Below are positions 1 through 43,574 of a stretch of 43,574 nt of DNA, in pieces. The notes beneath the pieces were generated by a model, which saw nothing but the letters and a program-made list of their open reading frames with translations, searched no databases and was not told the origin of the DNA. Origin of the DNA: a virus (Duplodnaviria; Heunggongvirae; Uroviricota; Caudoviricetes). The translations under genes were made by a program, and so were the position numbers. Numbering within the stretch: position 1 is the stretch's first letter; each line of letters opens with the position of its first letter. Location of the stretch: positions 1 through 43,574 of IMG/VR virus record IMGVR_UViG_2718217869_000002; one strand, written 5' to 3'.

Positions 1-1248
1 ATGGCACTGAATATTCCATTCAGAAATGCGTACTATCGTTTTGCATCCAGTTACTCATTTCTCTTTTTTATTTCCTGGTCGCTGTGGTGGTCGTTATACG
101 CTATTTGGCTGAAAGGACATCTAGGATTAACAGGGACGGAATTAGGTACACTTTATTCGGTCAACCAGTTTACCAGCATTCTATTTATGATGTTCTACGG
201 CATCGTTCAGGATAAACTCGGTCTGAAGAAACCGCTCATCTGGTGTATGAGTTTCATTCTGGTCTTGACCGGACCGTTTATGATTTACGTTTATGAACCG
301 TTACTGCAAAGCAATTTTTCTGTAGGTCTAATTCTGGGGGCGCTCTTTTTTGGCCTGGGGTATCTGGCGGGATGCGGTTTGCTTGACAGCTTCACCGAAA
401 AAATGGCGCGAAATTTTCATTTCGAATATGGAACAGCGCGCGCCTGGGGATCTTTTGGCTATGCTATTGGCGCGTTCTTTGCCGGTATATTTTTTAGTAT
501 CAGTCCCCATATCAACTTCTGGTTGGTCTCGCTATTTGGCGCTGTATTTATGATGATCAACATGCGTTTTAAAGATAAGGATCACCAGTGCATAGCGGCG
601 GATGCGGGAGGGGTAAAAAAAGAGGATTTTATCGCAGTTTTCAAGGATCGAAACTTCTGGGTTTTTGTCATATTTATTGTGGGGACGTGGTCTTTCTATA
701 ACATTTTTGATCAACAACTCTTTCCTGTCTTTTATGCAGGTTTATTCGAATCACACGATGTAGGAACGCGCCTGTATGGTTATCTCAACTCATTCCAGGT
801 GGTACTCGAAGCGCTGTGCATGGCGATTATTCCTTTCTTTGTGAATCGGGTAGGGCCAAAAAATGCATTACTTATCGGTGTTGTGATTATGGCGTTGCGT
901 ATCCTTTCCTGCGCGTTGTTCGTTAACCCCTGGATTATTTCATTAGTGAAGCTGTTACATGCCATTGAGGTTCCACTTTGTGTCATATCCGTCTTCAAAT
1001 ACAGCGTGGCAAACTTTGATAAGCGCCTGTCGTCGACGATCTTTCTGATTGGTTTTCAAATTGCCAGTTCGCTTGGGATTGTGCTGCTTTCAACGCCGAC
1101 TGGGATACTCTTTGACCACGCAGGCTACCAGACAGTTTTCTTCGCAATTTCGGGTATTGTCTGCCTGATGTTGCTATTTGGCATTTTCTTCCTGAGTAAA
1201 AAACGCGAGCAAATAGTTATGGAAACGCCTATACCTTCAGCAATATAG
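1..1248 (+). CDS. cscB: Sucrose:H+ symporter (LacY-family oligosaccharide permease, MFS)
   Basis: 415-aa hydrophobic 12-TM-like protein; sequence recognised as E. coli sucrose permease CscB; ORF starts at nt 1 and is complete. Confidence 0.85.
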   Translation: MALNIPFRNAYYRFASSYSFLFFISWSLWWSLYAIWLKGHLGLTGTELGTLYSVNQFTSILFMMFYGIVQDKLGLKKPLIWCMSFILVLTGPFMIYVYEPLLQSNFSVGLILGALFFGLGYLAGCGLLDSFTEKMARNFHFEYGTARAWGSFGYAIGAFFAGIFFSISPHINFWLVSLFGAVFMMINMRFKDKDHQCIAADAGGVKKEDFIAVFKDRNFWVFVIFIVGTWSFYNIFDQQLFPVFYAGLFESHDVGTRLYGYLNSFQVVLEALCMAIIPFFVNRVGPKNALLIGVVIMALRILSCALFVNPWIISLVKLLHAIEVPLCVISVFKYSVANFDKRLSSTIFLIGFQIASSLGIVLLSTPTGILFDHAGYQTVFFAISGIVCLMLLFGIFFLSKKREQIVMETPIPSAI

Positions 1249-7721: not shown

Positions 7722-8027
7722 TCAAATAAGTGGTTTGCTGCCTAATTTCATTTTCTGGCGACCAACACATGTCACACCCATTTCACTGCGCGGCTTGCTG
7801 TACCATGTGCGCTGATTCTTGCGCTCAATACGTTGCAGGTTGCTTTCAATCTGTTCGTGGTATTCAGCCAGCACTGTAAGGTCTATCGGATTCAGTGCGC
7901 TTTCTACTCGTGATTTCGGTTTGCGATTCAGCGAGAGAATAGGGCGGTTAACTGGTTTTGCGCTTACCCCAACCAACAGGGGATTTGCTGCTTTCCATTG
8001 AGCCTGTTTCTCTGCGCGACGTTCGCG
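7722..8027 (-). pseudogene. N: Antitermination protein N, 3' portion (disrupted by IS insertion)
   Basis: Translation from ...ERRAEKQAQWKAANPLLVGVSAKPVNRPILSLNRKPKSRVESALNPIDLTVLAEYH... closely matches lambda N; reading frame upstream continues into IS terminal repeat. Confidence 0.85.
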
Positions 8028-8221
8028 TTGCGTATTTTCATGAAAGGAGATCACTCAATAACTTCCATCGAGATCGGGTAATAACATTTGAACAGATCGC
8101 TGAATAACATCGATGGAGATCACTTTTGACTCATTTTGTTATTCAGTGATCTCCATCAATGTTATTGGAACTTCACAGGTGTGTTGATCTGTATCTTTTG
8201 CCATTCCGGTAAAGGATACCT

Positions 8222-9763
8222 ATGCCAACAGTTCCAATTTCTATGAGAAAACTTAAAGAAATTCTTAGGCTTAAATACGGTGTTGGACTCAGCCATCGAC
8301 AAATTGGTCGTAGTCTTGCAATCTCCCCTTCCGTTGTATCCAGATATGCTAATCGGGCGGCTCAACTTGGCATAAAGCAGTGGCCCTTACCTACAGGATG
8401 GGATGATACAAAACTAAAACATGCGTTCCTTCAGACCCAGGTTAAGATGAAGAAGCACTCTCTGCCTGACTGGGCTACAGTACACCGGGAACTGCGTAAT
8501 AAATGCGTGACGCTGCAGCTACTCTGGGAAGAATACTGTGAGCGTAATCCAGGCGGTTTTTACAGCTATAACCATTACTGCCGGATGTACCGTGAATGGC
8601 TCAAAACCACTTCACCATCAATGCGTCAGGTACATAAAGCTGGCGAAAAACTTTTCGTTGATTACTGTGGACCTACCGTTGGCGTTACCGACCCTGAGAC
8701 CGGAGAAATAAGAACTGCTCAGGTCATCGTAGCTGTTCTCGGGGCATCAAGTTACACATGGGCAGAGGCCACCTGGTCTCAGCAGCTTGAAGACTGGGTG
8801 ATGAGTCATGTTCGCTGCTTCCAGTGGTTGGGTGGCGTTCCTGAACTTGTTGTTCCGGACAATCTGAAAAGCGCCACATCCAGGGCATGTAAGTATGATC
8901 CTGACGTTAACCCTACCTACCAGCAGATGCTTGAGCATTATAATGTCGCAGTTTTGCCTGCGCGGCCACGTAAACCGAAAGATAAAGCCAAAGCTGAAGT
9001 TGGCGTTCAGGTTGTTGAACGCTGGATCATGGCCCGAATCAGGCATGAGATCTTCTACAGCCTTGCATCGCTTAATCAGCGCATTCGGGAGTTGCTGGAA
9101 AGACTGAATAACAAAATAATGCAGAAGTTGGGTTATTCACGTGCAGAACTCTTCATCCAGCTTGATAAACCCGCACTGAAGCCTCTTCCTGAAGCCAGTT
9201 ACAGTTACACCCTGGTGAAGAAAGTCAGAGTTCATGCCGATTACCACGTGGAAATCGACAAACATTACTACTCGGTTCCATGTTCGCTGTTAGGCCAGCA
9301 ACTGGAAGCATGGATCTCCGGAGAACTGGTAAGACTCTTCAATCAGGGGCAGGAGGTTGCTGTGCACCCGCGCAAGCGTACTTATGGCTACAGTACCCGC
9401 AACGAGCACATGCCTGAAGCTCATCGACAGCATGCCACCTGGACGCCAGAGCGTCTTCTGGAATGGGCGGGGCACATAGGCAGTGAAACTCATAGTTATG
9501 TGCTTCATATACTGAACTCTCGTCCACATCCGGAACAAAGCTATCGCTTCTGCCTTGGACTCCTGAACCTTCATAAAAAATACAGTAAAGCCAGACTTAA
9601 TGCAGCATGTGCAAGAGCTCTGAAAACAAAGGTATGGCGTCTGTCAGGTATTAAATCGATCCTGGAAAAAGGTCTGGATAAACAACCTGTTCAGGATCCA
9701 AAACCAGATCTGTTATCCACGATGGAACACGAAAACGTACGCGGCAGTGAGTATTACCACTGA
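8222..9763 (+). CDS. istA: IS21-family transposase IstA
   Basis: 513 aa with N-terminal HTH and DDE integrase-core-like region; size and tandem arrangement with istB. Confidence 0.8.
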   Translation: MPTVPISMRKLKEILRLKYGVGLSHRQIGRSLAISPSVVSRYANRAAQLGIKQWPLPTGWDDTKLKHAFLQTQVKMKKHSLPDWATVHRELRNKCVTLQLLWEEYCERNPGGFYSYNHYCRMYREWLKTTSPSMRQVHKAGEKLFVDYCGPTVGVTDPETGEIRTAQVIVAVLGASSYTWAEATWSQQLEDWVMSHVRCFQWLGGVPELVVPDNLKSATSRACKYDPDVNPTYQQMLEHYNVAVLPARPRKPKDKAKAEVGVQVVERWIMARIRHEIFYSLASLNQRIRELLERLNNKIMQKLGYSRAELFIQLDKPALKPLPEASYSYTLVKKVRVHADYHVEIDKHYYSVPCSLLGQQLEAWISGELVRLFNQGQEVAVHPRKRTYGYSTRNEHMPEAHRQHATWTPERLLEWAGHIGSETHSYVLHILNSRPHPEQSYRFCLGLLNLHKKYSKARLNAACARALKTKVWRLSGIKSILEKGLDKQPVQDPKPDLLSTMEHENVRGSEYYH

Positions 9764-9774
9764 TACGGGATCCA

Positions 9775-10524
9775 ATGATGAATCATCTTTACGAACAACT
9801 GACCGCACTTAAACTCACCGGCTTCCGTGATGCGCTTAAAAAGCAACTTGCTCAACCGGGCACATACCAGGAGCTGGGCTTCGAAGAACGCCTGTCATTA
9901 CTGACAGCAGAAGAACTAACCTGCCGTGAAAACAGGAAGGCAGAGCGTCTGATCAAACATGCACGGTTCAGACTTAATGCTGAGTTATCAAAGCTGGATT
10001 ATCGTAACAATAGAGGGCTGGACAGGGCCCTCATCCGTTCACTCAGTCAGGGAAACTGGTTAACCCTGAAACAAAATATTTTACTGACCGGGGCCACCGG
10101 CAGCGGTAAAACGTTCCTGGCATGTGCACTTGGTCATAATGCCTGCCGACAGGGATACAAGGTCTACTATTATCGCCTTAAAGCGCTGATGGAACAGTGC
10201 TATCAGGGGCATGCTGATGGAAGATACAGCAAACTTTTGACCAGGCTGAATAATAGCGATCTGCTGCTTCTGGATGACTGGGGGCTGGAACCTCTCTCAT
10301 CAGAACAGCGTAGCGACCTGCTGGAAATAGTGGATCTGATGTACCAACGAGGCTCAATCATCGTAGTGAGCCAGTTGCCGGTGGAAAACTGGTACAAAAT
10401 GATCGGAGACTCCACACATGCGGATGCCATCCTAGATCGACTGGTTCATGGCAGTATCAAGATCGAACTTAAAGGAGAATCAATGCGGAAAATACAATCT
10501 CCGTTGACCGAAGGAGATCAGTGA
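9775..10524 (+). CDS. istB: IS21-family helper ATPase IstB
   Basis: 249 aa with Walker A LTGATGSGKTFLA and Walker B LLLLDD motifs. Confidence 0.85.
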   Translation: MMNHLYEQLTALKLTGFRDALKKQLAQPGTYQELGFEERLSLLTAEELTCRENRKAERLIKHARFRLNAELSKLDYRNNRGLDRALIRSLSQGNWLTLKQNILLTGATGSGKTFLACALGHNACRQGYKVYYYRLKALMEQCYQGHADGRYSKLLTRLNNSDLLLLDDWGLEPLSSEQRSDLLEIVDLMYQRGSIIVVSQLPVENWYKMIGDSTHADAILDRLVHGSIKIELKGESMRKIQSPLTEGDQ

Positions 10525-10609
10525 AGGTAATTTAAAAACGGTTCTGTGAAAGTGACACGAACCGATCTCCATCGATGTTACTCACCGATCTCCTTCACGG
10601 TAATACGCA

Positions 10610-10634
10610 CGCGGCGGCGTGTTTGAGAGTCCAT
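10610..10634 (-). pseudogene. N: Antitermination protein N, 5' fragment (first 8 codons)
   Basis: Minus strand ATG GAC TCT CAA ACA CGC CGC CGC G matches lambda N start ATG GAT GCA CAA ACA CGC CGC CGC G; ends at IS boundary. Confidence 0.75.
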
Positions 10635-11178: not shown

Positions 11179-12531
<1,353 letters not shown>

Positions 12532-21648: not shown

Positions 21649-22170
21649 ATGAACTACCCAACCGTTGTTAACGATATAGATTTCAGAGACCTAATTTTTG
21701 TAGCAAACAACGATCCGGTTACAGATTCTTTTATGGTGGCAAAAGCATTTGGAAAGCTGCCGAAGAACGTAGTCCGTGACATTGAGCGAACCATAGAAGC
21801 TTGCCCTCCTGAGTTTGATACAAAGCTCAACTTTGAGCTTTGCTATAAAAACAATGAGTTACAGAATGGTAAGCCGCAAAAATTCTACCGTCTCCGCAAG
21901 GATGGGTTGATGCTTTTGGTTATGTCCTACACCAAAAAAGAAGCAATGCGTATCAAAATTGCTTACATCAACGCATTTAACTGGATGTACGCCATGCTTC
22001 AGGTTGGTCATCTTCAATTTGAAGAAGAGAGAAATGCCGTAATGCTGGAGTACATGAAAGAGAAGGATGTTGCCAGCATGTCAGGTCGCCTGCTAAATCG
22101 CTGGGGAAAATTAAGAAGCCTCAGCTACTGGCGAGAATTGAACGCCTTGAACAGCACGGGCAAACCGTAA
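21649..22170 (+). CDS. Rha-family phage regulatory protein
   Basis: 173 aa; N-terminal region (NNDPVTDSFMVAKAFGK...VVRDIERTIE) typical of Rha-type proteins; from memory. Confidence 0.55.
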   Translation: MNYPTVVNDIDFRDLIFVANNDPVTDSFMVAKAFGKLPKNVVRDIERTIEACPPEFDTKLNFELCYKNNELQNGKPQKFYRLRKDGLMLLVMSYTKKEAMRIKIAYINAFNWMYAMLQVGHLQFEEERNAVMLEYMKEKDVASMSGRLLNRWGKLRSLSYWRELNALNSTGKP

Positions 22171-22349
22171 TCCCCGGACTCACTAATTAACGGCAGTACA
22201 GCGAAACAACCCAAGCCAGTAAGTGGGGAAATAACACTGGCAGCCACTGAAAGATGAACCTCCTGCCTTATGGCAAAAAAAGATTCTTTGTGGTGGCGGA
22301 CTGATGGAAAGACATCCTAATCAAGCAACCACTCCACAGGGTCATAATT

Positions 22350-28133: not shown

Positions 28134-29387
28134 ATGGCTAACCAATTAGCAAAAGACCTTGAAATCATGTTCGAAAACTACGTTGAAGGCTTTGAGGCCG
28201 CCTGCGTAGTTTCCCGTAACGCTAAAAAATTCCGTCCCGGTGATACAGCAATGCAGCGAGCAGGTGATGTTCTGTATCGTCCGCAGCATTACCACATGAA
28301 CATTGAGGAAGGCCTCGATCTCAGCAGCAAAACGCCAACAGCACTGGTTCAGCGCCTTGTTCCTTCAGTGTTCAAGGAGCCGAAAAACATTCTGTACACT
28401 CTGGATGCGCGTGAAATGCGTGACCCTGAGCATAAAACTGAAGCTGGTCGAGCCGCAGGTATGCGCCTTGCTGCACAGATTGACTCGGACCTGATTTCCA
28501 TGGTCACGCAGCGTGCTACTAACGTGATCACAATGGCTGACTCAACCACAGGTACACAGGGCCGTGATTTGTGGAACTGTGCGGCAGGTATTGATGCCAC
28601 CATGACGGCGATTGGTGTACCTCAGGGTATAAACCGTCGCTCTTTCTGGAACCCCTTCAACTACAAAGACCTTGCTGGCGAGCTTGGTCACCGTGCCTAT
28701 GCTCAGGGCGCAACCCTGACAGCATACGAAAAAGCGCAGATCCCTCCGGTTGCGTCCTTCGATAGCTACAAGACCGATATTTCTGGTCGTGTTCCGAAGG
28801 GTACAGCAACTTCCATTACGCTGGCAGCAGCACCTGCGCACAAGGTTGAAGCGAAAGATGCTAACGATATGCCAGTGGATAACCGACAGGGGACCATTAC
28901 GGTATCTGCTGAAGGTTTGCAGGTTGGCGATGCGTTTACCATCGCAGGGGTGAATTCTGTACACCAGATCACCAAAGATACCACCGGGCAGCCGCAGGTA
29001 TTCCGCGTTCTGGCAGTAAGCGGAACGACAGTAACTATCTCCCCGAAAATTCTGCCGCCTGACAACGCGGATGTCGCCAGCCGACCATATGCAAACGTTG
29101 ATGCTAATGCGGCAAGTAGCGCAGCAATCACCATTCTCAACAAAAATGCCGCACCGGCTAACCTGTTCTGGGCTGATGGTTCTGTTGAACTGATGTACGG
29201 CAAGCTGGCGTTCCCAACTGGTCAGGGTCCACAGGTAATGACAGCAACCACCGAGCAGGGCGCTACGCTGATCATGTCTTACGCCTTCGACCACATCAAA
29301 GGTGTAACCACTGCGCGTTTCACCACCCTGTACGGTTGCTCTGTACTTGTTCCTGAATATACGGGCATCGTTATTGCCGGGCAGTAA
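28134..29387 (+). CDS. Major coat protein (P22 gp5-like)
   Basis: 417 aa; C-terminal region resembles P22 coat; followed by strong terminator hairpin. Confidence 0.85.
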   Translation: MANQLAKDLEIMFENYVEGFEAACVVSRNAKKFRPGDTAMQRAGDVLYRPQHYHMNIEEGLDLSSKTPTALVQRLVPSVFKEPKNILYTLDAREMRDPEHKTEAGRAAGMRLAAQIDSDLISMVTQRATNVITMADSTTGTQGRDLWNCAAGIDATMTAIGVPQGINRRSFWNPFNYKDLAGELGHRAYAQGATLTAYEKAQIPPVASFDSYKTDISGRVPKGTATSITLAAAPAHKVEAKDANDMPVDNRQGTITVSAEGLQVGDAFTIAGVNSVHQITKDTTGQPQVFRVLAVSGTTVTISPKILPPDNADVASRPYANVDANAASSAAITILNKNAAPANLFWADGSVELMYGKLAFPTGQGPQVMTATTEQGATLIMSYAFDHIKGVTTARFTTLYGCSVLVPEYTGIVIAGQ

Positions 29388-29394
29388 TTTTGGT

Positions 29395-29417
29395 GGGGCT
29401 TCGGCCCCATTTTTATT
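29395..29417 (+). terminator. Intrinsic terminator after coat gene
   Basis: GGGGC-TTCG-GCCCC hairpin followed by ATTTTTATT. Confidence 0.7.
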
Positions 29418-29428
29418 GGGAGAAGACA

Positions 29429-29617
29429 ATGGCACGAACAATGCTCTATAAGCCTGGCAACATGATCACCTGTGGTCAGTTTGCTGTCGATTACATCATT
29501 GTTGATGACGAAGAAGTTAAATCTCACCTGAAAAAAGGCTGGGTAAAAACTCCTGAAGAAACCGCAACGAAGCATAAAGTGGCTAAGGCGGAAGAAGATG
29601 GCGAAAACGAAGGGTGA
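29429..29617 (+). CDS. Small hypothetical head-module protein
   Basis: 62 aa; GGGAGAAG RBS; lies between coat and gp4-like genes as small ORFs do in P22. Confidence 0.45.
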   Translation: MARTMLYKPGNMITCGQFAVDYIIVDDEEVKSHLKKGWVKTPEETATKHKVAKAEEDGENEG

Positions 29618-30059
29618 TCTCGTTCTTAAGGCTTTACGAAAAGCCGGGCTGTATTCCAATGCCACGTTGACAGATGCTGACCCTCAGGCAATTGAAGATG
29701 CCATTAATGACCTCGAAGACATGATGGCAGCATGGCAGGCTAAAGGTATCGAGCTTGGATATCAGTTTGCTGATACAGAAAACGGCATCATGCCGTTACC
29801 TGACGATGATTCAGGTATCCCTGCATGGGCAAATGATGGCGTCGCTTTGAAACTCGCTGTGCAAGTGTGCATGGATAACGTCATTCAGCCGTCAGACGCT
29901 CTCCTTACCGCTGCTGACAGTGCATATCAGACAATCTGTATCGCTTTAACCAAAATACCACCACTTGAGCGGCGAAATGACATGCCTCGCGGTAGTGGTA
30001 ACAAAAGCGCGTTTACGTGGAATCGGTTTTACATCGAGAAAGATGATCCGAGTACGTGA
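29598..30059 (+). CDS. Head-to-tail adaptor / tail accessory factor (P22 gp4-like)
   Basis: 153 aa; KGDLVLKALRKAGL...ATLTDADPQAIEDAINDLEDMMAAW similar to P22 gp4. Confidence 0.8.
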   Translation: MAKTKGDLVLKALRKAGLYSNATLTDADPQAIEDAINDLEDMMAAWQAKGIELGYQFADTENGIMPLPDDDSGIPAWANDGVALKLAVQVCMDNVIQPSDALLTAADSAYQTICIALTKIPPLERRNDMPRGSGNKSAFTWNRFYIEKDDPST

Positions 30060-30068
30060 GGTGAATAA

Positions 30069-31487
30069 ATGCCGATTCAGCAACTTCCGCTTATGAAAGG
30101 TGTCGGCAAAGACTTTCGAAACGCCGACTATATCGACTATCTGCCAGTGAATATGTTGGCAACCCCCAAAGAAATCCTGAACAGCAGCGGATATCTTCGC
30201 TCATTCCCGGGCATTGCCAAACGCTCTGATGTAAACGGCGTATCGCGCGGCGTCGAGTACAACATGGCGCAGAATGCTGTTTATCGTGTGTGTGGCGGCA
30301 AGCTCTACAAAGGCGAAAGCGAAGTCGGTGACGTCGCCGGAAGTGGTCGCGTATCAATGGCACATGGTCGGACATCTCAGGCTGTAGGCGTTAATGGTCA
30401 ACTGGTCGAGTATCGCTATGATGGCACGGTTAAAACCGTCTCAAACTGGCCTACGGACAGCGGATTCACGCAGTATGAGTTAGGTTCTGTTCGCGACATT
30501 ACTCGCTTACGTGGGCGTTATGCGTGGTCAAAAGACGGCACTGATTCATGGTTTATCACTGACCTTGAAGACGAATCGCATCCTGACCGTTACAGCGCAC
30601 AATATCGTGCCGAGTCTCAGCCGGACGGCATCATCGGTATCGGGACATGGCGAGACTTCATCGTCTGCTTTGGTTCATCGACTATTGAATATTTCTCCCT
30701 GACTGGCGCAACCACCGTTGGTGCTGCTTTGTATGTCGCACAGCCATCACTGATGGTGCAAAAAGGCATCGCCGGGACTTACTGCAAAACACCATTCGCT
30801 GATTCTTATGCGTTCATCAGCAATCCGGCAACTGGTGCTCCGTCTGTATACATCATCGGCTCCGGTCAGGTATCACCAATCGCCAGCGCGAGCATTGAGA
30901 AAATCCTCCGCTCCTACACTGCTGATGAACTGGCTGATGGCGTGATGGAATCGTTGCGGTTTGATGCGCATGAGTTGCTGATTATCCATCTTCCGCGTCA
31001 CGTCCTCGTGTACGACGCATCTTCAAGTGCCAATGGTCCGCAATGGTGTGTGCTGAAAACAGGCCTGTATGACGATGTGTACCGCGCTATCGACTTCATT
31101 TACGAAGGCAATCAGATAACGTGCGGCGATAAGCTAGAGTCCGTGACCGGGAAATTGCAGTTCGATATCAGCAGCCAGTACGACAAGCAGCAGGAACACC
31201 TGCTGTTTACTCCGTTGTTCAAAGCGGATAACGCCAGAGTTTTCGACCTTGAAGTTGAATCTTCAACTGGAGTTGCGCAGTATGCTGACCGCCTGTTCCT
31301 CTCTGCAACCATTGACGGAATCAATTACGGGCGTGAGCAGATGATTGAGCAGAATGAACCGTTCGTTTATGACAAACGTGTTTTGTGGAAGCGAGTCGGG
31401 CGCATCAGGAAAAATGTCGGCTTCAAATTGCGCGTTATCACGAAGTCACCTGTCACTCTGTCTGGCGCTCAGATAAGGATTGAGTAA
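30069..31487 (+). CDS. Tail hub protein (P22 gp10-like)
   Basis: 472 aa, same length class and order as P22 gp10. Confidence 0.8.
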
Positions 31488-32335
31488 TGGCGGATTCGAA
31501 TCTCAATGTGCCGGTAATCATTCAGGCTACACGGCTCGACACATCAGTCCTTCCACGCAATATCTTCTCGCAGTCGTATCTGCTTTACGTTATCGCTCAG
31601 GGCACTGATGTTGGTAACGTGGCTAACAAGGCCAACGAGGCCGGACAGGGCGCTTATGATGCACAGGTCAGGAACGATGAGCAGGATGTGATTCTCGCTG
31701 ACCATGAGCAGCGAATTTCTGCTGCGGAAGCAACGCTTGTTAATCATGAGGAGCGAATCAGCCATGCAGAATCAACTCTTCAGGAACATGAAACACGAAT
31801 AGCTCAGAATGAAAGCGATATTGCGTCGCTTGATACCAGAGTTCAGTCGCTGGAATCGCAGGTTTCAGACCATGAAACGCGCATCGATGCTCTTGAGTAT
31901 GCCACTACGCGCAAGAAGTCAGAAGTTGTTTACTCTGGCGTATCAGTAACCATCCCGACAGCGCCGACCAACCTTGTTAGCCTGCTGAAAACGCTCACTC
32001 CGTCATCCGGCACGTTGGCACCATTCTTCGACACCGTTAACAACAAGATCGTTGTGTTCAACGAGAACAAAACCTTGTTCTTCAAGCTGTCGATCGTCGG
32101 GACGTGGCCCAGCGGAACCGCCAACAGGTCAATGCAGCTAACCTTTTCCGGCTCTGTTCCTGACACACTGGTAAGCAGTCGCAACTCGGCGACAACAACC
32201 GATAACATCTTGTTAGCTACGTTCTTCAGCGTGGATAAAGACGGCTTTCTTGCCACAAATGGCAGCACGTTAACCATTCAGTCGAATGGTGCGGCGTTTA
32301 CTGCCACAACCATCAAGATAATCGCGGAGCAGTGA
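31487..32335 (+). CDS. Tail needle (P22 gp26-like N-terminus with distinct C-terminal knob domain)
   Basis: N-terminus [43 protein letters not shown] matches gp26; heptad coiled coil; 282 aa as in Sf6-type needles. Confidence 0.85.
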
Positions 32336-32790
32336 TGATTCAGTTCAAACCAACGCGAAACATCGACCTGATCGAAGCAGTCGGAAATCACCCTGACATT
32401 ATTGCCGGGAGCAACAACGGTGATGGATACGACTACAAGCCTGAATGCCGTTACTTTGAGGTTAACGTGCACGGTCAGTTTGGCGGCATTGTTTACTATC
32501 AGGAGATTCAGCCGCTGACATTCGATTGCCACGCCATGTACCTGCCAGAGGTTCGTGGATTCAGCAAGGAAATCGGGCTGGCGTTCTGGCGATACATTCT
32601 GACTAACACCACCGTTCAGTGCGTCACATCATTTGCTGCACGCAAATTCCGCCACGGTCAGATGTACTGCGCAATGATTGGCCTTAAGCGTGTAGGAACC
32701 ATCAAGAAATACTTCAAAGGCGTGGATGACGTGACATTTTACAGTGCTACACGCGAAGAACTAATCGAATTCCTGAATCACGGGAGATAG
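32332..32790 (+). CDS. Head assembly/ejection-associated protein (P22 gp14 position)
   Basis: 152 aa; assigned by conserved gene order 26-14-7-20-16. Confidence 0.5.
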
Positions 32791-32792
32791 CC

Positions 32793-33485
32793 ATGTTATA
32801 TGCATTTAAGCTGGGCAGAAAACTGCGCGGCGAGGAACCTTATTGCCCTGAAAAAGGCGGGAAAGGTGGCAGTTCTGATAAAAGCGCAAAGTATGCCGCA
32901 GAAGCTCAGAAGTATGCAGCAGACCTGCAAAATCAGCAGTGGCAGACGATCATGAAAAACCTTGCTCCGTTCACGCCTCTTGCTGAGCAGTATGTTAACC
33001 AGCTTCAGAACCTTTCCAGTTTAGAAGGTCAGGGGCAGGCACTTAATCAGTATTACAACTCTCAGCAGTATAAAGACCTTGCAGGTCAGGCTCGTTACCA
33101 GAGTCTTGCTGCTGCGGAGGCTACGGGAGGACTTGGTTCGACAGCCACAAGCAATCAACTGGCCACGATTGCCCCGACTCTCGGTCAGTCTTGGTTATCA
33201 AACCAGATGAGCAACTACAACAATCTGGCAAACATTGGCCTTGGTGCGCTGCAAGGTCAGGCGAACGCCGGGCAGACATACGCCAACAACATGAGCAGCA
33301 TTGCACAGCAAAGCGCAGCTCTTGCCGCTGCTAATGCCAATAAACCATCAAGTCTTCAGACTGCAATTAGCGGTGGCACGTCTGGTGCGATTGCCGGTGC
33401 AGGTCTTGCCAGCCTTTTGGGAACATCAACACCTTGGGGCGCTGGCATTGGTGCTGGTATCGGATTGCTTGGCTCGTTGTTTTAA
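32793..33485 (+). CDS. Ejection (internal virion) protein, P22 gp7-like
   Basis: 230 aa, Gln/Ala/Gly-rich low-complexity protein at gp7 position. Confidence 0.7.
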   Translation: MLYAFKLGRKLRGEEPYCPEKGGKGGSSDKSAKYAAEAQKYAADLQNQQWQTIMKNLAPFTPLAEQYVNQLQNLSSLEGQGQALNQYYNSQQYKDLAGQARYQSLAAAEATGGLGSTATSNQLATIAPTLGQSWLSNQMSNYNNLANIGLGALQGQANAGQTYANNMSSIAQQSAALAAANANKPSSLQTAISGGTSGAIAGAGLASLLGTSTPWGAGIGAGIGLLGSLF

Positions 33486-33494
33486 GGGGTAATC

Positions 33495-34901
33495 ATGGCT
33501 ACTTGGCAAGGATCAAATGGCGGATTGTTGGCTGGTATCGGCGGCGTCAACTCAAACGCTCCGAGCGTAAATGACATCGGCAATACGCTTCAGCTTATCA
33601 GACAGAACAATGATATTGAGCGTTCAGGCGCTAACAATGTTGGTCTGGCTGCTTTGCAAGGCCTTTCAGGTATTGCGGGGGTGTTTCAGCAGGAAAAGCA
33701 GGCTCAGCGGCAGAAAGAATTTCAGCAGGCATACGCTAATGCTTATGCGTCTGGTGATCGCGGTGCTTTGCGTCAGTTGGCTACTCAATATCCAGACCAG
33801 ATTGAATCCGTTCGTAAAGGCATGGGATTCATTGATGAAGAGCAGCGTAATTCTATCGGCACCTTAGCAGCTGGCGCACGCCTTGCTGCCTCGTCTCCAG
33901 AAGCAATGCAATCATGGCTGCAAAACAACGCCAAGGAACTGGCGCGCGTCGGTGTTGACCCTAATAACATTGCTCAGATGTATCAGCAGAACCCTTCAGG
34001 ATTTGGTGAGTTTGTTGATCACCTTGGAATGGCTGCTCTTGGTCCGATTGATTACTTCAATGTTCAGGACAAGATGGCTGGTCGTGAGATTGACCGAGGC
34101 AGACTGGCAGAGACAATCCGCAGCAATCAGGCTGGTGAAGCACTTCAGGCGAGAGGGCAAAACCTTTCCTATCAGTCAGCAATGACTGGGCACAATATCG
34201 CAGCACAACGCTTGGCTCTGGATCAGCAAGAGTTCGGGTTTAAGATGCAGCAAGCGCAGGAAAAGGCTCAGCAGTTGATTAGCGAAGCACCTAAGCTGTC
34301 AGTAAACATGGAAAAAGGCATCGAGATGGCTGTAAACAATGCCACAGCATCATCAAACTCAGCCAATTCTATGAGTGCGCTTGCTCAACAGTTCAGAGCA
34401 GAAAAACCAACGACAGGTTTGTTCGGTAACGCACAGAACATGTTCGCAAAACTTACCGGAAGCGATACGACATTGCGTGATTTGCGCATTCGCCAAAATG
34501 CCCTTGTTAACAGTCAGGTTCTTAAATTCCTACCTCCCGGCCCCGCAACGGATAAAGACGTTGAGATCGTTCGTCAGGGTGCACCAACTGACATGGATAA
34601 CCCTGAGACGGTCGCAAGATGGCTTGATGCGATGGCAAACCTTGAGCGACGAAATGCGCAGTTTAATGAGTTTAAAGCCGAGTGGATGAGCGCGAATGGC
34701 AATCCAGGACAATCGCGCAATGGCGGTCAGATATTGGGGTTGGATGTTAAAAAAGGTGAATCAATGGGGAGTGCCGTTAAGCGGTATATGTCAATGAATA
34801 CTGACGCAGCGCCAGCACAAGATTCGACACCTTCAGGAGAACCACGGAATCAGGTTGGATCATATACCTCAAAATCAGGCATTCAATTTACGGTGGAATG
34901 A
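33495..34901 (+). CDS. Ejection protein, P22 gp20-like
   Basis: 468 aa at gp20 position and size. Confidence 0.7.
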
Positions 34902-36745
34902 TGAAAGTAACTGCAAACGGTAAGACATTTACCTTCCCTGATGGTACGAGCACGGAAGATATTGGCACCGCCATTGATGAGTATTTTGCTGGTCAGGCTG
35001 TTCAGCAACAAACAGTTAATCAGGCCAATAATGCACCAACACGGGAAGAACCATCATTGATGCAACAAGCTGGCGATTGGCTCACTGGTGGTCAAAGTGC
35101 AGGGCAAATTGCAGAACAGGCTGGTCGTGGTCTGGTAAACATACCATTTGACGTATTGCAGGGCGGCGCAAGTCTGATTAATGCAATCAGCCAGGGGCTT
35201 GGTGGCCCCAAGGTTTTGGACGATGTCTATCGTCCAGTCGATCGACCAACAGACCCTTATGCGCAAGCTGGAGAAACAATTGGCGGGTATTTAGTTCCAG
35301 GAGTTGGAACGGCAGGAAGCATGGCTATTGGATCACTGGCAGAGGCCGCAAATCAGAAAGGCGATTTCGCACAAAATGCAGCTAAAAATGCCGGAGTTAA
35401 CCTTGCCGCTCAGGGGGTTCTTTCCGCAGCAGCAAAGGGAATAGGGCGTGGAATAACGGCTATAAAAGGTGATATTGCGCCAGAAGTGGCGAAGAAAATT
35501 GCCACATCAGAATCGATGGGCGTGACACCAATGACATCTGATGTTATCCCGCCGAAAAATGCTTTCACTCGCGGCCTAACTCAGGATGCCGAGGGGGCTT
35601 TGCTCGGGACAGGCTCAAAGCGAGCGGAGCAATATGCAACGCGTAGTAAGCTGGTAAGTAATTATTTTGACCGTTTTGGTGAGTACAACCCTGATGATGT
35701 GGTGAAATCTCTTACCACCACGTTAAGGGGGCGGAAGGATGCCGCTGGCGCTGTTATCAATGACGTCACCAATAAAATGGGTAATGCCGCAGTTGATACC
35801 ACAAATACCATGAATGCTCTGAATACAGCGATCGCAAGACAGGAACGGCTTGGGACGTCTGCCAATCAAAGCCTGCTTACATCCTTGCGTAACCTACGTG
35901 AAGAATTAGCAAACCCTGCAACTGATTTGGATGTTACGTTTGATCTCTTGCGTCAGCACAGAACAGCATTTAGATCTAATGTTCAGGGAGATGCTATGGT
36001 CTTCCCAAACCAGGCAAAAGCAGCTACCAATATGGTAGAGAATGCAATGTCAAAAGATCTTCGTAACGCAGTTGCAAAAAACCTCGGTGCATCAGACGCA
36101 GCAAAATACCTTAAAGCAAATTCCGATTATGCAAACGTTTATAATAAGGTGCTTAATAAAAACATTGCTAACAAGCTCAACAAGGCAAGCAGTGAAGCCA
36201 GTCCTGAACTTATAAATACCGTTGTATTAAGCAGAAAACCATCTGACGTGAAACGAATCTGGAGCGCATTGGATAATAAAGGGAAAGATGCTATGCGTGC
36301 AGCTTATGTCAGCAAAATAGCGGAAAAGGCCGGTGACTCTCCAGCCAAGTTCATCACTGAAGTTAATAAGCTGAAATCTCAGTCAGGCGGTGAAATTTAC
36401 AACACTATTTTTTCTGGAAAGCACATGAAAGAGCTTGATTCTCTTCATGAAGTTCTACAGCAAACAGCAAGGTCAGACACCGCAAATGTAGTAACTCAGA
36501 CGGGGCAATCGCAAGCCAACAGGATAAGGACGATTGGCGCAACTGCGACTCTTGGCGTATCAATGGGGCTTGAGGCTGGTTTCGGTGCAATGATGCGCTT
36601 GTATGAGTCAAAAGCAGCAAGGAATGCTCTCTTACGTTTGGCAAACACCAAAGCAGGAACACCAGCCTATGAAAGAGCGCTAAATAATGCTGCAAATGCG
36701 ATACGCCCTATACTTTCAAGCCAAATTACAGCAGAACAGCAATAA
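34898..36745 (+). CDS. Ejection protein, P22 gp16-like
   Basis: 615 aa at gp16 position and size. Confidence 0.7.
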
Positions 36746-36758
36746 AAATAAGATATAA

Positions 36759-37244
36759 CTATCTGATATTACTGCTACTGTTGCATGTTACCGTGTTTCC
36801 AAATCCTGAATTGCAGTTTGTATATGTGTCAACGCGTGTTGGGTAAGGTTGAGTTATAACAGGCTGGCGCGCTTTTTGCTCGATCGCTTGCATTGTGTTT
36901 ACAGCCTGATAATTCAATAAAGCCTGCTGGAATGCTTGGCTTTGTGCTATTTGTTGGGCTTGTTCTTGGCTTTGTAATTGAACATAAAGATTCTGAAGCT
37001 CAAGTCTTGCCTGTGCGTCACTTATCTTGCCTTCATCGACACCTTGCCCGAGCATCTTTGCAGCAAGGACATACAGCTTAGGTGTTGGTGCTGATGCCAT
37101 GCGTGAGTCGTTCTTCACACTGGCATCAAGGCAATTAGCCATATCGCTAAGCTTTGGATGGCGTTGTTCGCAACTTGCTTGATAGTCACTTACTTTTGCG
37201 CATCCAACCAGCAGAATCGGGATAATTAACAGTGATTTTTTCAT
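36759..37244 (-). CDS. Lipoprotein of unknown function downstream of mnt (sieA position)
   Basis: 161 aa from ATG 37244 with AAGGAG RBS; signal peptide plus lipobox LLVGC; Gln-rich helical middle, Cys-containing C-terminus. Confidence 0.6.
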   Translation of the reverse strand: MKKSLLIIPILLVGCAKVSDYQASCEQRHPKLSDMANCLDASVKNDSRMASAPTPKLYVLAAKMLGQGVDEGKISDAQARLELQNLYVQLQSQEQAQQIAQSQAFQQALLNYQAVNTMQAIEQKARQPVITQPYPTRVDTYTNCNSGFGNTVTCNSSSNIR

Positions 37245-37314
37245 ATGGTTAACTCTCCTTAGTTTTTCACAGGATAGCATGAAGGCAATGCCATTTTAGC
37301 CGGAAACTAGATTT

Positions 37315-37702: not shown

Positions 37703-39514
37703 ATGTCAGATATCACCGCAAACTTAGTGGTAGGGATGCCTTCGCAGCTTTTCACGCTGGCACGCTCATTTAAAGCAAATGCCAACGGTAAAATCTATCT
37801 TGGGCTACCAGATACCGATCCTACAATCCCAGCGAACCAAATCCCTGTTTATATTGAAAGTGAAACTGGAGATCTGATTCCAACTGCTCAGCCGATAGTC
37901 ATTAACGCGGGTGGCTATCCTGTTTACAACGGGCAGATATCAAAGTTCGTTACTGTGCAGAATTACAGTATGACTGTTTATGACGCCTATGGCTCTCAGC
38001 AGTTCTACTTCCCTGACATTGCAAAATACGACCCAGATCAGTTAAGGCAACAGCTTGAGAGTAGTTCTGGTGCTGACATTGTAATGACTGGATCAGCTCC
38101 ATTCATTGTTAGAAGTGTTGGCGACATTCTAAAAGACATTCCTACCAATAAATATTTTGGTGCGAAATGTGATGGTGTAACTGATGATACAGTAGCGAAT
38201 CAAACTGCTCTTGATTGGTCTGCTGATAACAAAAGAACTGTTCTTTTTGTTGGCAAGTCATGTACATCATCCAGGTTGGTTTTAAAAAGCGGAGCGAGGA
38301 TGGAGAACATAGGTTCAATAGCTCCTAAAAATTTCACTGACACAGTTGTTATAGAAATAAAGGATGATTCATGGAGGACTCCATATAATGACGGGATAAC
38401 AGCAATTCAGACTGGAAATCGGGTTCTTCTGAATAATATTAACATAGAACCTGACGAAGTGATAAATGCTGTTGGTATTTATGGAACTGATGGAGTTGGT
38501 CCTGTAATTAATAATGCCAGAATATTTAACATGAGAAATGGAGGTGTTGATATTGAAAAGGGATATGAATGGAAATTTTCAAACTTGTCTATTGTGGCTC
38601 CTTTCGATCAGTCAATAGACTCTACAGCACCAGGAATTCTCCATAGAACAAGTGATAGCATGTATCACAATACAACAGTTACAGGTTACACAACTGGCAT
38701 GAGGATCACGTCTGGTGCTAATGATGTAACAAATACCCATGTATGGGGTCTTGCAGGAAGCAGAACAACCAGGGTAATGCTTATTGGATTAGACGTGTCA
38801 GGGAGCGCTAACAACATTACAAACTTCTATAGCGACTCACCACACAAGAAAGATTCAACACCTGCTAGCGTTACTAACGGTGGGATTGCATTTAATATCT
38901 CAGGATTCAACAACACGTTTAACGGATGCCGAGCATTGTTTCATCATGATGATGGAACCAAGTATGGAAAGATTTTTAATATTACAGGAACTGAGAATAC
39001 ATTCTTGTCATCTATGTGCTCAGATTTATCAGGAGTTGAGGATGCAGGTATCTTTGTTTTCTCTGGTTCCGGGACTCCAGTAAATAACTATGTGTATGGT
39101 GGTAATATTCAGAGTCTGTATGTTTTCCCTCAGTCTGTTGGATTCAACCCTACAATAAATGCTCCGTGTACCTATACTTCACAAATATACAGGCATGAAT
39201 TGACTCAGCGCAACGTATCAGGAAGACTAACCATTTCTTGTAATATCACAAGTAATGTTGGTTCTGGTGCTTTTTCTATAACCCTTCCGTCATATTTAAG
39301 CTCGTTTAAAGGTGATTGCATGGGTTCTATACTTACTATATTAAATAGTGCAATAAGGACTGACACTAATTTATTGGAGGTAAATGGTTACATTACAGGA
39401 GGTAAAATTTTCTTCCGCAGAATCTTTAGGTCAGGCTCACCTGTTGATGTTCAGATAACAGATCTGATAACAGGTAATGCAACAATAGACTTAAGCTTTT
39501 CTTGTTGTTTATGA
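37703..39514 (+). CDS. Tailspike protein (P22-type head-binding N-domain, divergent beta-helix receptor-binding domain)
   Basis: N-terminus [52 protein letters not shown] matches P22 gp9 residues 1-110; remainder unrelated with beta-helix-like repeats. Confidence 0.85.
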
Positions 39515-39566: not shown

Positions 39567-40994
39567 TCATTTACATGGATTTATTCCGTAATATATTACA
39601 ATATCATCTTTATATCTGAATATTGAGTAATATCTTGATGAAATCAATGGCTCTGATTTGATGCCACAAACCATGCGCAACATGCCGCTTTTAACAACGT
39701 TATTATAAAGTGCAACATTTTTTATGTTGTACTGTTGCATTATAGAAATTGATATCCATGGCACAGCCGGGCTATATATCTGCCTAATAAATTTGTTAGC
39801 AGACAGTATCTTCCCGGTTATCCGCGAATTATATATGTCTCCGTAAGCGTAAACATATCCCTTGAAATCAAGTTTAGATAGATCATTAGCTGCAAGTGAA
39901 ATAACAAATTCCTCATACTTTCTTTGCTCTTTTATGGCATTCGAAAATAGAAAAGAAGTAGATAAGGAGAAAAACAAAATAACAGATACGAATGCAGTGT
40001 AAGTATTTTTATTAAACGCCTTATAAAATGAATAAATGAACAATGCTATAGAAGCAGAAAGGCCAGACAATACCCTAACGTCTGTTATACCCTCCCTTAA
40101 AAGAAATGCAGGCCCAGTCATGGAAAGTAAAATTGCAACTGGGGATAAAGTAATAAATAAAATATTTACCACACCTTCATTTCTTGACTTTATGACATAC
40201 GTCAAATAACAAAATAAAAAACACGCGGCACCTAAAATAACTATAAATTCATATAACTTGCCTACCAAGCCAAAATAAAAGTATACCTTTTCTAGGGATG
40301 ACATGAAAGATTTAATAATATCGGATGGGTCGATGTATGACGCCCTTCCTGAATTCATCTTGAAAAAATAACTTATCAATATGAAGTATAATAAATATGA
40401 TGATAAAAAAACTAAAAGAGATTTTATGTTTGATATTTTTGCATATTTATAAACTGCGTTACCTGCAACTAATGTTATAAATATGTTGGCGCAAGGCTGA
40501 TACAGGCAAAGAGATGATACTAGAAGTATCACTGAAAAAACTATCGATACTTTTCTTTTTTCGTCATATATAAAAAAAGATAAAACACAAAGCGCTGTAG
40601 CCAATACCATAGTGAACGAGTCAAACTGATATGCAGCGTTCTGAATGAAAAATGGAGTTACAAAGATAGATGTCAAGAATAAAGAAAAAACGAATTTATT
40701 GTTTTCTTGAGATAATTTATCTGAAACATACCAAATTACAGCAGATGCAACTATCACGCCTGTTAGTAATGGCATAGGTGCTGTATTAGGAAGCATTTTA
40801 AAGTTCAAAGAGAATATATGCATTAGGAAATCGGAAAGAGGTCTTCCCAAAACCCCCCACCCATCAAAAGAAAACAATGATCTATCTAAGTCATCCCTGT
40901 AAAGAACATCCGCGGATATTATTGGATAGAAAAATATCGCAATTAAAAACAATGGGATGTAAAAATATTTAGAATTAAACATTCCTATTTTCAC
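39567..40994 (-). CDS. Serotype-specific O-antigen glucosyltransferase (GtrC-type polytopic membrane protein)
   Basis: 475 aa, many TM segments, very AT-rich coding sequence; third gene of gtrA-gtrB-gtr(type) cluster. Confidence 0.7.
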
Positions 40995-41904
40995 CTTTCT
41001 TTAGTATGTACTTTGGTCTTTTTTTGGTTTCTATGTATATGCGTCCAATGTATTCACCAAGGACACCAATCCCAATCAATTGAATGCCGCCAAGGAAAAG
41101 TATGGAAACCAACAGTGACGGGTATCCAGGAACACTATTACCGAAAAGAAGCTTATCTAAAATCATCCACGCGCCATAAATGAATGACAGGCTGGCGACA
41201 GCAAGTCCGATGTATGTCCACATGCGCAATGGAAAAGTTGAGAAACTGGTGATTCCTTCAAGCGCGAGATTCCACAGCTTCCAGCCATTGAACTTGCTGT
41301 CACCAGCTATGCGTTCTGCGCGAGCATACTCGACGACGTCAGTCTTTCCACCAACCCAGCTAAGTATGCCTTTCATAAACAGGTTGCGTTCAGGCATTGA
41401 TTTAATGTTCTCAACCACTTCACGCGACATAAGCCGAAAGTCTCCGACGTTTTCCTCAATCTTCGGATTGCTTATTTTATTGTGGAGCTTATAGAACCAC
41501 TCAGCCGTTTTTCGCTTCAGTCTGCCATCCGTTGAGCGGTCAGATCGTTTAGCAAGCACCATATCAGCGCCTGCCTGCCATTTTTCAATCAGTTGAGGTA
41601 TTACCTCAATCGGGTCTTGCAGGTCAACATCAATAGGAATAACAGCATCGCCTGTTGCATGGTCTAACCCTGCAAACAATGCTGGTTCTTTACCAAAGTT
41701 GCGCGTAAATGACAGCGGAACAACTAGCGGATCAGAAACAGCCAGAGCGTAAATTATTGACTCTGTAGAGTCTTTGCTGCCGTCATTTATGAAAACAATT
41801 TCCACCTCATATGGCTTCAACTCTTCGAGTTCACGTACCGTTTTATAAAAAATTGGTATCGCTTCTTCTTCATTGAAGACAGGAACTACAAGAGATATCT
41901 TCAT
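40975..41904 (-). CDS. gtrB: Bactoprenol glucosyltransferase GtrB (GT2 family)
   Basis: 309 aa; N-terminal GT2 motifs ([21 protein letters not shown]) and two C-terminal TM helices. Confidence 0.85.
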
Positions 41905-42263
41905 TTCGCATCCCTAAAGACAATGAACTTTGAATATACGAAACCGCACACCAGGCTGATGGCGGAGAAAGTGATAAGGGTTAGCATCGGGGGAAGTGCG
42001 CATCTATCAGCAGCCCATCCAACAGTTGCACTCAGTGTTCCCATGAACCCGACATATAACATGTAGCGCATCGTTGTAGTCGATGCTTTGAATGTGAATT
42101 TTGCATTCGCGAAGAAGCTAAAGCTCACAGCCACAACGAAACCTGCGAAGTTTGCAAGAGCCTGGTTTGTATGCGCTGCATAGATACAAACACCAAAAAC
42201 CACCCAGTGTATAAGTGTGTTCAGCACACCAATCGAGGTGTACTTTGCAAATAGCTTTAACAT
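41901..42263 (-). CDS. gtrA: GtrA flippase-like small membrane protein
   Basis: 120 aa, four TM helices, immediately upstream of gtrB. Confidence 0.8.
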
Positions 42264-42416: not shown

Positions 42417-43574
42417 TCACTCCACCTTTTCATCAAGCCAATCCGCCCACCACTGCATCATTTCTCTGCGCTTATCGAGATACTGTGCATGGTTGTAAAT
42501 CCCGCGCACAGATCCGCCGTTGGCATGTGCCAGTTGCACTTCAATAGCGTCAGCAGGCCATTCGTGCTCGTTCATAATTGTGCTGAATTCATGCCTGAAT
42601 CCGTGACCGCTTTCCAGACCCTCATAGCCGATTTGTTTGATCACAAGCAATACCGCGTTCTCGCAGATTGGCTTCTTCTTATCGTTGCGCCCGGCAAAAA
42701 CAAACTCTGATACTGGTTTAGTGATGGAGCTTAGCGTAGTGAGAAGTTCATCCACCTGGTCTGACATAGGAACAACATGAATCTTGCGGCCCTTCATCAC
42801 ACTGGCGTCGATAGTGATAATCCTGTTTTCAAAATCGACGTTCTTCCATTGCATGGAACGAAGCTCTTTCGTTCTTAGGGCTGTGTAGCGTAAAACTTTG
42901 GTCGCAATGAGCGATACGATGCTTCCTGAAAATGTTGCAAGTGCTTTGTTAAATGCCGGGATCTGGTCTGCAGGAAGAAACGGGAAGTTCTTCTTGCGGT
43001 ATCCCTTCATGGCGTCAGCAAGGTCAGGTGCCGGGTTATATTTAGCCCTTCCGGTGACAATAGCGTAACGGAAAACCTCGCCGCATCTTCTGCGTGCTTT
43101 GTTTGCTCGCTCCATTGCGCCGCGATCTTCAAATCTGCGGATTACTTCCAACAGTTGCATCGGCTCAATATCCTGAATTTCAAGGCCGCCGATGATGGGT
43201 AAAATGTCGTCATCAAACATTTTTGCAAGTTCATTTGCATAGCCTACTGACCAGACTTGCTTCTTGTGCTCGTACCATTCCTTGTAAATGGCGCTAAAGG
43301 AGTTGTTGTTAGACGAAGCCTTTTTCGCTTTTACCGGATCGATTCCAACCGAGATGTCTTTCCTCGCAGTCCATGCTTTATCCCTTGCCTCCTGCAAAGT
43401 CATAAGCGGATATTTTCCTACGGTCAGTATTTTTTCCTTACCGTCAATCTTGTAGCGAAGCTGCCATACCTTTTTCCCGGATACAGGGACATAAAGGTAC
43501 AGGCCATTACCATCGAGAAGGCGGTATGGTTTTTCTTTCGGCTTTGCTGCTTCAATCTGCTTAACGGTGAGCAT
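42417..43574 (-). CDS. intS: Tyrosine integrase (IntS/CPS-53 type)
   Basis: 385 aa; C-terminal catalytic R..H..R..Y region (HGFRHEF..., ...LAHANG...RGIYNHAQY); start codon at window end, transcribed toward gtrA. Confidence 0.9.
   Translation of the reverse strand: MLTVKQIEAAKPKEKPYRLLDGNGLYLYVPVSGKKVWQLRYKIDGKEKILTVGKYPLMTLQEARDKAWTARKDISVGIDPVKAKKASSNNNSFSAIYKEWYEHKKQVWSVGYANELAKMFDDDILPIIGGLEIQDIEPMQLLEVIRRFEDRGAMERANKARRRCGEVFRYAIVTGRAKYNPAPDLADAMKGYRKKNFPFLPADQIPAFNKALATFSGSIVSLIATKVLRYTALRTKELRSMQWKNVDFENRIITIDASVMKGRKIHVVPMSDQVDELLTTLSSITKPVSEFVFAGRNDKKKPICENAVLLVIKQIGYEGLESGHGFRHEFSTIMNEHEWPADAIEVQLAHANGGSVRGIYNHAQYLDKRREMMQWWADWLDEKVE

Follow-up and report, generated by a model that had tools for sequence, protein, structure and literature searches.

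The Sf6-type tail needle is among the best-characterized components of podovirus tails, with two crystal structures of its knob, cryo-EM of the tail and genetic swaps available. In Sf6 the needle is a homotrimer that closes the channel of the hexameric tail hub with a quasi-six-fold plug built from its N-terminal helical hairpins (PMC9728967), and the knob of the needle has been defined as amino acids 140–282 (PMC3741392). According to the latter source, the knobs of Sf6 and of the HS1 prophage needle fold as a TNF-like jelly roll at the distal end of the shaft and bind a phosphate as well as three L-glutamates. In the two crystals, L-glutamate is contacted by the side chains of E146, K200, S248 and D250 (Sf6 numbering; Leavitt et al. 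[quoted passage not shown] Sixteen heptads have been counted in the HS1 needle against 11 in that of Sf6 (PMC3741392). The fate of the needle during infection has been followed by cryo-ET of P22: once the needle has met the cell surface, the particle takes up a new orientation and loses the needle, after which a channel of ejection proteins forms and the DNA follows (PMC9400499). An altered needle tip slows the release of K+ (Leavitt et al. 2013, PMC3741392), which points to a role of the needle in the kinetics of DNA delivery. This delivery rate, measured as K+ efflux kinetics, is the effect of the needle tip that has been demonstrated in published work.

The window considered here, a stretch of 43,574 nucleotides, corresponds in full (positions 1–43574) and at 100% identity to the reverse complement of positions 1377010–1420583 of the E. 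coli Ecol_545 chromosome (NZ_CP018976.1), and consists of a P22-like (Lederbergvirus) prophage at argW together with one host gene. Judged by its sequence, the product of the gene at 31487–32335 is an Sf6-type tail needle, a homologue of P22 gp26 with a C-terminal knob and an allele of Sf6 gp9. A full-length BLASTP alignment with Sf6 gp9 gives 276 identical residues out of 282 (∼98%) without gaps. The protein scores 387.6 bits (E = 8e-117) against PF16532 (Phage_tail_NK, ‘Sf6-type phage tail needle knob’), well above the curated gathering cut-off of 27, and covers profile positions 1–175 of 175. Residues 130–282 match the crystallized knobs of the Sf6 ‘gene 9 protein’ (3RWN, E = 5e-90) and of HS1 (chain 4K6B, E = 1.5e-89), and residues 1–144 match P22 gp26 structures, including 2POH, 3C9I, 4ZKP and 8EAP (phmmer E about 1e-44). 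The best PHROG match is phrog_1030 ‘tail needle knob’ (3e-135); phrog_1219 ‘tail needle protein’ is matched by the N-terminal half only (6.5e-52). At the nucleotide level the gene is 100% identical to that of Ecol_545 encoding WP_073473290.1, named ‘tail needle knob protein’ by PGAP. The feature is thus known to atomic detail and already correctly named in RefSeq and in the source genome. No evidence contradicting the needle identification was met in the analysis. The explanation that best accounts for all the evidence, and that can be held with very high confidence, is that a P22-like prophage of the Sf6 type (Lederbergvirus) encodes here a needle made of a trimeric plug, a shaft and a knob, the tip of which tunes the rate of delivery. 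Table 1 collects the coordinates of the main features.

Table 1. Principal features of the window, in window coordinates.
Feature	Position	Strand	Evidence or remark
Tail needle gene (Sf6 gene 9 / P22 gene 26 homologue)	31487..32335	+	282 codons + TGA
N-terminal domain, residues 1–60, putative plug of the tail hub channel	31487..31666	+	plug role from PMC9728967
Trimeric coiled-coil shaft, residues 70–139	31694..31903	+	10 uninterrupted heptads, register computed
Sf6-type distal knob, residues 140–282	31904..32332	+	PF16532, 3RWN/4K6B matches
Tail hub / gp10 homologue (Sf6 gp8), plug partner of the needle	30069..31487	+	PF11134 Phage_stabilise, 994 bits
gp14 homologue (DUF2824)	32335..32790	+	PF11039, PF25688, PF16928 and phrog_770 matches cover the gp14 homologue and the ejection genes
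Ejection protein genes (gp7, gp20, gp16 homologues)	32793–36745		directly downstream of the gp14 homologue; Pfam/PHROG matches
Host gene, oligosaccharide MFS / LacY-family transporter	1–1248		
ISEc12 (IS21-family) element	∼8060–10610		istA 8222–9763, istB 9778–10524

The domains of the protein were compared one by one in an alignment of the window needle with those of Sf6, JEP4, HK620 and P22. Over residues 1–60 identity amounts to 60/60 with Sf6 (100%), 58/60 with HK620 (97%), 49/60 with P22 gp26 (82%) and 97% with JEP4, so that the hub-binding N-terminal segment of some 60 residues is homologous to that of the gp26 family. The family resemblance extends to the shaft, a continuous heptad-repeat coiled coil in which every a-position is occupied by leucine, isoleucine or valine (L70, I77, L84, I91, L98, I105, I112, V119, V126 and I133). 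Residues 61–139 are 95% identical to Sf6, 71% to JEP4, 41% to P22 and 34% to HK620. The knob is 99% identical to those of Sf6 and JEP4, whereas the values of 6% and 20% obtained for HK620 and P22 over residues 140–282 come from forced alignment and indicate unrelated regions. Membership of the TNF-like jelly-roll class follows from the near-identity to the crystallized knobs, 141/143 residues for 3RWN and 142/143 for 4K6B.

A two-module origin of the needle is seen plainly, at the level of sequence, in a translated search of phage genomes: the N-terminal half matches P22/HK620-type needles at 52–59% identity and the C-terminal half matches ‘tail needle knob’ domains in unrelated phages at 32–50%. 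In the needle gene, Tandem Repeats Finder reported a weak 9-bp, 3-copy match at 31616–31642 only, and the heptads are not tandem repeats at the DNA level; simple repeat slippage is therefore not an obvious cause of the 35-residue length polymorphism of the shaft discussed below. Single-sequence AlphaFold2 (AF2) prediction gave one continuous helix for residues 55–141, with block mean pLDDT of 88–95 over residues 71–130. For the full protein, mean pLDDT was 62.5 and pTM 0.37; the knob, in this run made without an alignment, showed partial beta strands only and pLDDT below 50 at residues 175–197 and 223–259. Such a poor model lends no independent support to the jelly-roll fold and, equally, is no evidence of disorder. 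It was rejected as input for fold search, because low-confidence models match meaninglessly and crystal structures of 99% identical proteins exist.

These results bear out most of a preliminary description drawn from the raw sequence, which had proposed a 282-residue reading frame with a gp26-like hub-binding segment, a heptad coiled coil and a separate region from about residue 140, as in needles that carry a distal knob. The frame is real, the segment and the ten heptads are present, the proposed boundary agrees with the published limits of the Sf6 knob, and the PF16532, 3RWN and 4K6B matches establish the knob-bearing type. Of the comparisons it suggested, with the needle knobs of Sf6 and HK620, the first gives near-identity and the second no similarity beyond that of a forced alignment. 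The epithet ‘distinct’ for the C-terminal region is apt relative to P22 gp26 only and fails against the Sf6 and HS1 knobs. Identity to a characterized needle, which the description had named as an outcome speaking against its reading, holds for practical purposes, the knob being one or two residues away from those of HS1 and Sf6; the assignment as a needle stands nonetheless. With 98% identity to a needle whose knob has been crystallized, the call is correct but ordinary.

The needle gene is a frame from ATG to TGA that spans exactly the 849 nucleotides on the + strand. Its ATG overlaps by one base the TAA of the upstream gene (TAATG), which encodes a 472-residue gp10 homologue named ‘packaged DNA stabilization protein gp10’ by PGAP, and its TGA overlaps by one base, at 32335, the ATG of the gp14 homologue (TGATG). 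The same overlapping starts and stops characterize Sf6 genes 8, 9 and 10. As is usual for P22-like needles, the gene has its place in the late operon between those for the gp10 and gp14 homologues, upstream of the ejection genes, and the order gp4–gp10–needle–gp14–gp7–gp20–gp16–tailspike in the window is that of Sf6. Relative to the Sf6 gene, 29 nucleotide differences are found over 849 nt, 22 of which fall in codons with an unchanged amino acid, indicating purifying selection on the needle and on its + frame. A scan of positions 29300–33500 on both strands found no promoter-like site or convincing terminator inside or beside the needle gene; a hairpin at 31695–31714 within the gene was dismissed as a terminator for want of a proper T-run. 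The sole convincing terminator in the scanned region is the hairpin at 29392–29411 (+), a strong hairpin followed by a T-run right after the coat gene (28134–29387); the counterpart of this hairpin in Sf6 is annotated as the ‘t coat’ terminator.

Six substitutions separate the window protein from Sf6 gp9. Four are located in the shaft (S92 in place of R, H93 in place of Q, E100 in place of D, A113 in place of S) and two in the knob (I188 in place of M, A270 in place of S). The HS1 needle also has A270, and both Sf6 and HS1 have M188, which leaves I188 as the sole knob residue unlike both crystallized knobs. Thirteen other proteins of 282 residues were compared, namely 12 catalogued members of the 90% cluster and Sf6 gp9: among these H93 is private to the window allele, I188 is found in one, and the remaining four substitutions represent the majority state. 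H93 and I188 are ordinary micro-variation. The window protein retains, without any shift in position, all four glutamate-contact residues and the three residues of the S-R-N triad.

The exact protein occurs on 125 public contigs under the name ‘tail needle knob protein’, and its 90%-identity cluster counts 3,620 members. A match to the needle gene is present in 919 of the 5,426 complete E. coli genomes; in 491 it extends over 80% or more of the gene, and three genomes harbour the gene at 100% nucleotide identity. The closest needle genes of isolated phages are those of N7, Louie, phiKp_30, Sf6 and Kapi1, at 96–97% nucleotide identity.

Within the prophage, genes for terminase, portal, scaffold, coat, gp4, gp10, needle, gp14 and the three ejection proteins are followed by Arc, the tailspike, gtrABC-like O-antigen modification genes and IntS. 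A tRNA scan of the window found no tRNA gene, argW being located just past the right end. Two adjacent pieces of the 3' end of the argW tRNA-Arg gene, TGGTGTCCCCTGCAG and GGAATCGAACCTGCAA, are present as separate partial copies at 1690–1704 and 1998–2013, 293 bp apart, flanking torI/xis (1778–1978, −); in the intact tRNA, which lies just outside the window on its right-hand side, they are contiguous (L002 32250–32279). The first piece fits the attR core of the prophage, and a copy such as the second, of 16 nt, is expected by chance with a frequency of about 1e-3. A 173-residue ORF at 36759–37280 (−), in the immI-like region between the gp16-like ejection gene and the Arc-family gene, has no Pfam domain and a sole match in phrog_6067, a family of uncharacterized function; accessory or exclusion genes occupy this position in P22-like phages. 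At 39567–42263 (−) lies an O-antigen modification cassette of gtrA, gtrB (yfdG/yfdH-like) and a gtrC-type glucosyltransferase gene, adjoining intS (42417–43574, −). P22-like prophages usually carry such a cassette beside intS as their lysogenic-conversion module.

Several features bear on the integrity of the prophage. The ISEc12 element, with repeated GATCTCCATCGATGTTA-type terminal motifs at both ends, is inserted between the LexA-like repressor/pL region (11580–12212, −) and the gene for antiterminator N (7722–8051, −). The insertion probably uncouples N from pL, on account of which the prophage may be non-inducible and may no longer produce virions. A gene for a Rha-family transcriptional regulator at ∼21649–22190 (+) is annotated as frameshifted, a pseudogene, in the identical Ecol_545 record, and a DUF551 gene in the early-left region is partial and marked as incomplete, and both defects point to decay of the prophage.

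On these grounds the needle could be regarded as an intact but disused passenger of a crippled prophage, never assembled in this strain. The position of ISEc12 and the two damaged genes speak in its favour, as does the presence of the needle gene among the P22-like remnants noted in many E. coli genomes (Leavitt et al., PMC3741392); against this, the structural, lysis and packaging genes from terminase to tailspike are all full length, and the needle frame itself is intact with conservative changes only. We regard this scenario as rather unlikely, and it concerns the activity of the gene in the strain, not its identity. As for identity, the ORF list also includes antisense frames of 73 and 115 residues within the needle gene, and the signal at these coordinates could in principle belong to the longer of them, at 31930–32277 (−), or to a chance ORF. 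The + frame, however, matches solved structures and curated families at E values from 1e-90 to 1e-135, its substitutions relative to Sf6 are mostly synonymous, the scan for promoter-like sites and convincing terminators returned none on either strand in or beside the gene, and PGAP annotates a + strand gene only at the locus. An antisense or chance reading is considered excluded.

The needle reading leaves the question of what its tip does. The preliminary description had supposed that the tip may contribute to host range, a view that would make the knob, like the adenovirus fibre knob and PRD1 P5, a receptor-binding determinant recognizing an outer-membrane component of Escherichia or Shigella. 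The Sf6-type knob does belong to the same fold class as those receptor-binding knobs, the needle tip is placed to reach the membrane first, and homologues of the knob occur at the C-termini of proteins from many unrelated phages (40–50% identity). Yet P22 hybrids given a knob from Sf6 or HS1 show normal infection of Salmonella (Leavitt et al. 2013, PMC3741392), mutants in the glutamate site show no phenotype (PMC3741392), the mutations of Sf6 evolved for host-range expansion are all in the tailspike, and the OmpC-binding region has been placed in the distal tip of the tailspike (PMC9400499). Furthermore, the knobs of P22-like phages differ by no more than 4.9% despite diverse tailspikes (PMC3741392), a pattern that would be unexpected if the knob determined specificity. 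The knob-swap and tailspike results thus go against the supposition, and such a role appears improbable; a subtle version of it keeps a small chance because P22-like phages with an Sf6-type knob all infect Escherichia or Shigella (PMC3741392). Slighter still is the prospect that the allele is of special consequence, either through substitutions (M188I in the knob, Q93H at a c-position of the shaft that is exposed to solvent) that might measurably alter needle behaviour, for instance the kinetics of DNA ejection or the stability of the knob, or by revealing an undiscovered E. coli ligand or receptor role of the glutamate-binding knob. The tailspike at 37703–39514 (+) is more likely than the needle to be the host-range determinant of the prophage. 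Its N-terminal ∼175 residues, the head-binding domain, match Sf6 gp14 (7SG7) and the P22 tailspike, and the receptor-binding body (∼residues 176–603) has no PDB sequence match and no Pfam domain. This body has no solved relative by sequence and is a more interesting target than the needle.

The preferred reading, a needle whose tip governs delivery, can be translated into a course of events by homology with Sf6, HS1 and P22. The window needle would be a homotrimer whose N-terminal ∼60 residues form a helical-hairpin plug that seals the hexameric hub of gp10 homologue and thereby retains the packaged DNA in the head. Residues ∼70–139 would form a trimeric coiled-coil shaft projecting past the six tailspikes, and residues 140–282 would make up the distal end, a compact knob with the TNF-like jelly-roll fold, predicted from the Sf6 and HS1 crystal structures to hold a phosphate at its tip and three L-glutamates where the subunits meet. 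In the course of infection the tailspikes would cut through the O-antigen, after which the needle tip would touch the outer membrane; release of the needle would unplug the channel and allow the gp7, gp20 and gp16 homologues and the DNA to exit. The tip domain would tune the rate of DNA delivery and not the host specificity, and we infer that the window allele behaves identically to the Sf6 and HS1 needles. Gene identity, domain layout, ligand-contact residues and synteny can be read directly in the window; the trimer, the fold, the plug role, the loss of the needle and the kinetic effect are transferred from the Sf6, HS1 and P22 literature on the strength of proteins that are 98–99% identical. 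The first-pass reading of raw sequence correctly recognized a knob-type needle, and its wider importance is small.

A comparison with known systems places the needle at the end of a series of increasing likeness. The adenovirus fibre knob and the PRD1 P5 knob share with the Sf6-type knob the class of TNF-like jelly-roll trimers, according to PMC3741392 and PMC9728967; the analysis detected no sequence similarity between them and the window needle, and they are proven receptor binders, in contrast to the Sf6-type knob, which has no demonstrated receptor. Proteins of Cba120/Kuttervirus-like phages, T4-like phages (44RR2.8t, Miller), the Edwardsiella phage GF-2 and Vibrio and Aeromonas phages contain a PF16532-type domain that aligns with roughly residues 140–268 of the window needle at 32–50% identity, and the glutamate-contact residues are reported to be conserved in them (PMC3741392). 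These proteins, however, lack a gp26-like N-terminus and belong to a different virion context. The P22 and HK620 gp26 needles (2POH, 3C9I, 5BU5) have a homologous plug domain and a coiled-coil shaft that is likewise trimeric, are encoded at the same place in the gene order, and share with the Sf6-type needle the role of plug and of contact with the envelope, but they measure 233 residues and end in a tip without a globular knob that is unrelated to residues 140–282.

The relationship is far closer with the HS1 prophage needle (EcHS_A0316; knob 4K6B), which differs from the window protein in the knob at I188 versus M alone, and with that of JEP4, whose knob is identical in 141 of 143 positions. 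Needles of the HS1/JEP4 type are 317 residues long, against 282 in the window, where the shaft is of the short Sf6 type: their shaft, ∼71% identical, is 35 residues longer owing to insertions of 28 and 7 residues, equivalent to five heptads. JEP4 (L005 301–1254), Gally, vB_EcoP-720R6 and HS1 all carry a 99% identical knob on the longer shaft. The HS1/JEP4 and Sf6 types represent a polymorphism of needle length with a constant tip, already described for HS1. The nearest counterpart is Sf6 gp9 (NP_958185; knob 3RWN), which has the same length without indels, the same 60 N-terminal residues, a knob identical in 141 of 143 positions with like ligand-contact residues, and a gene set between the gp10 and gp14 homologues as in the window; the two differ in their hosts, E. 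coli for the window prophage and S. flexneri for Sf6.
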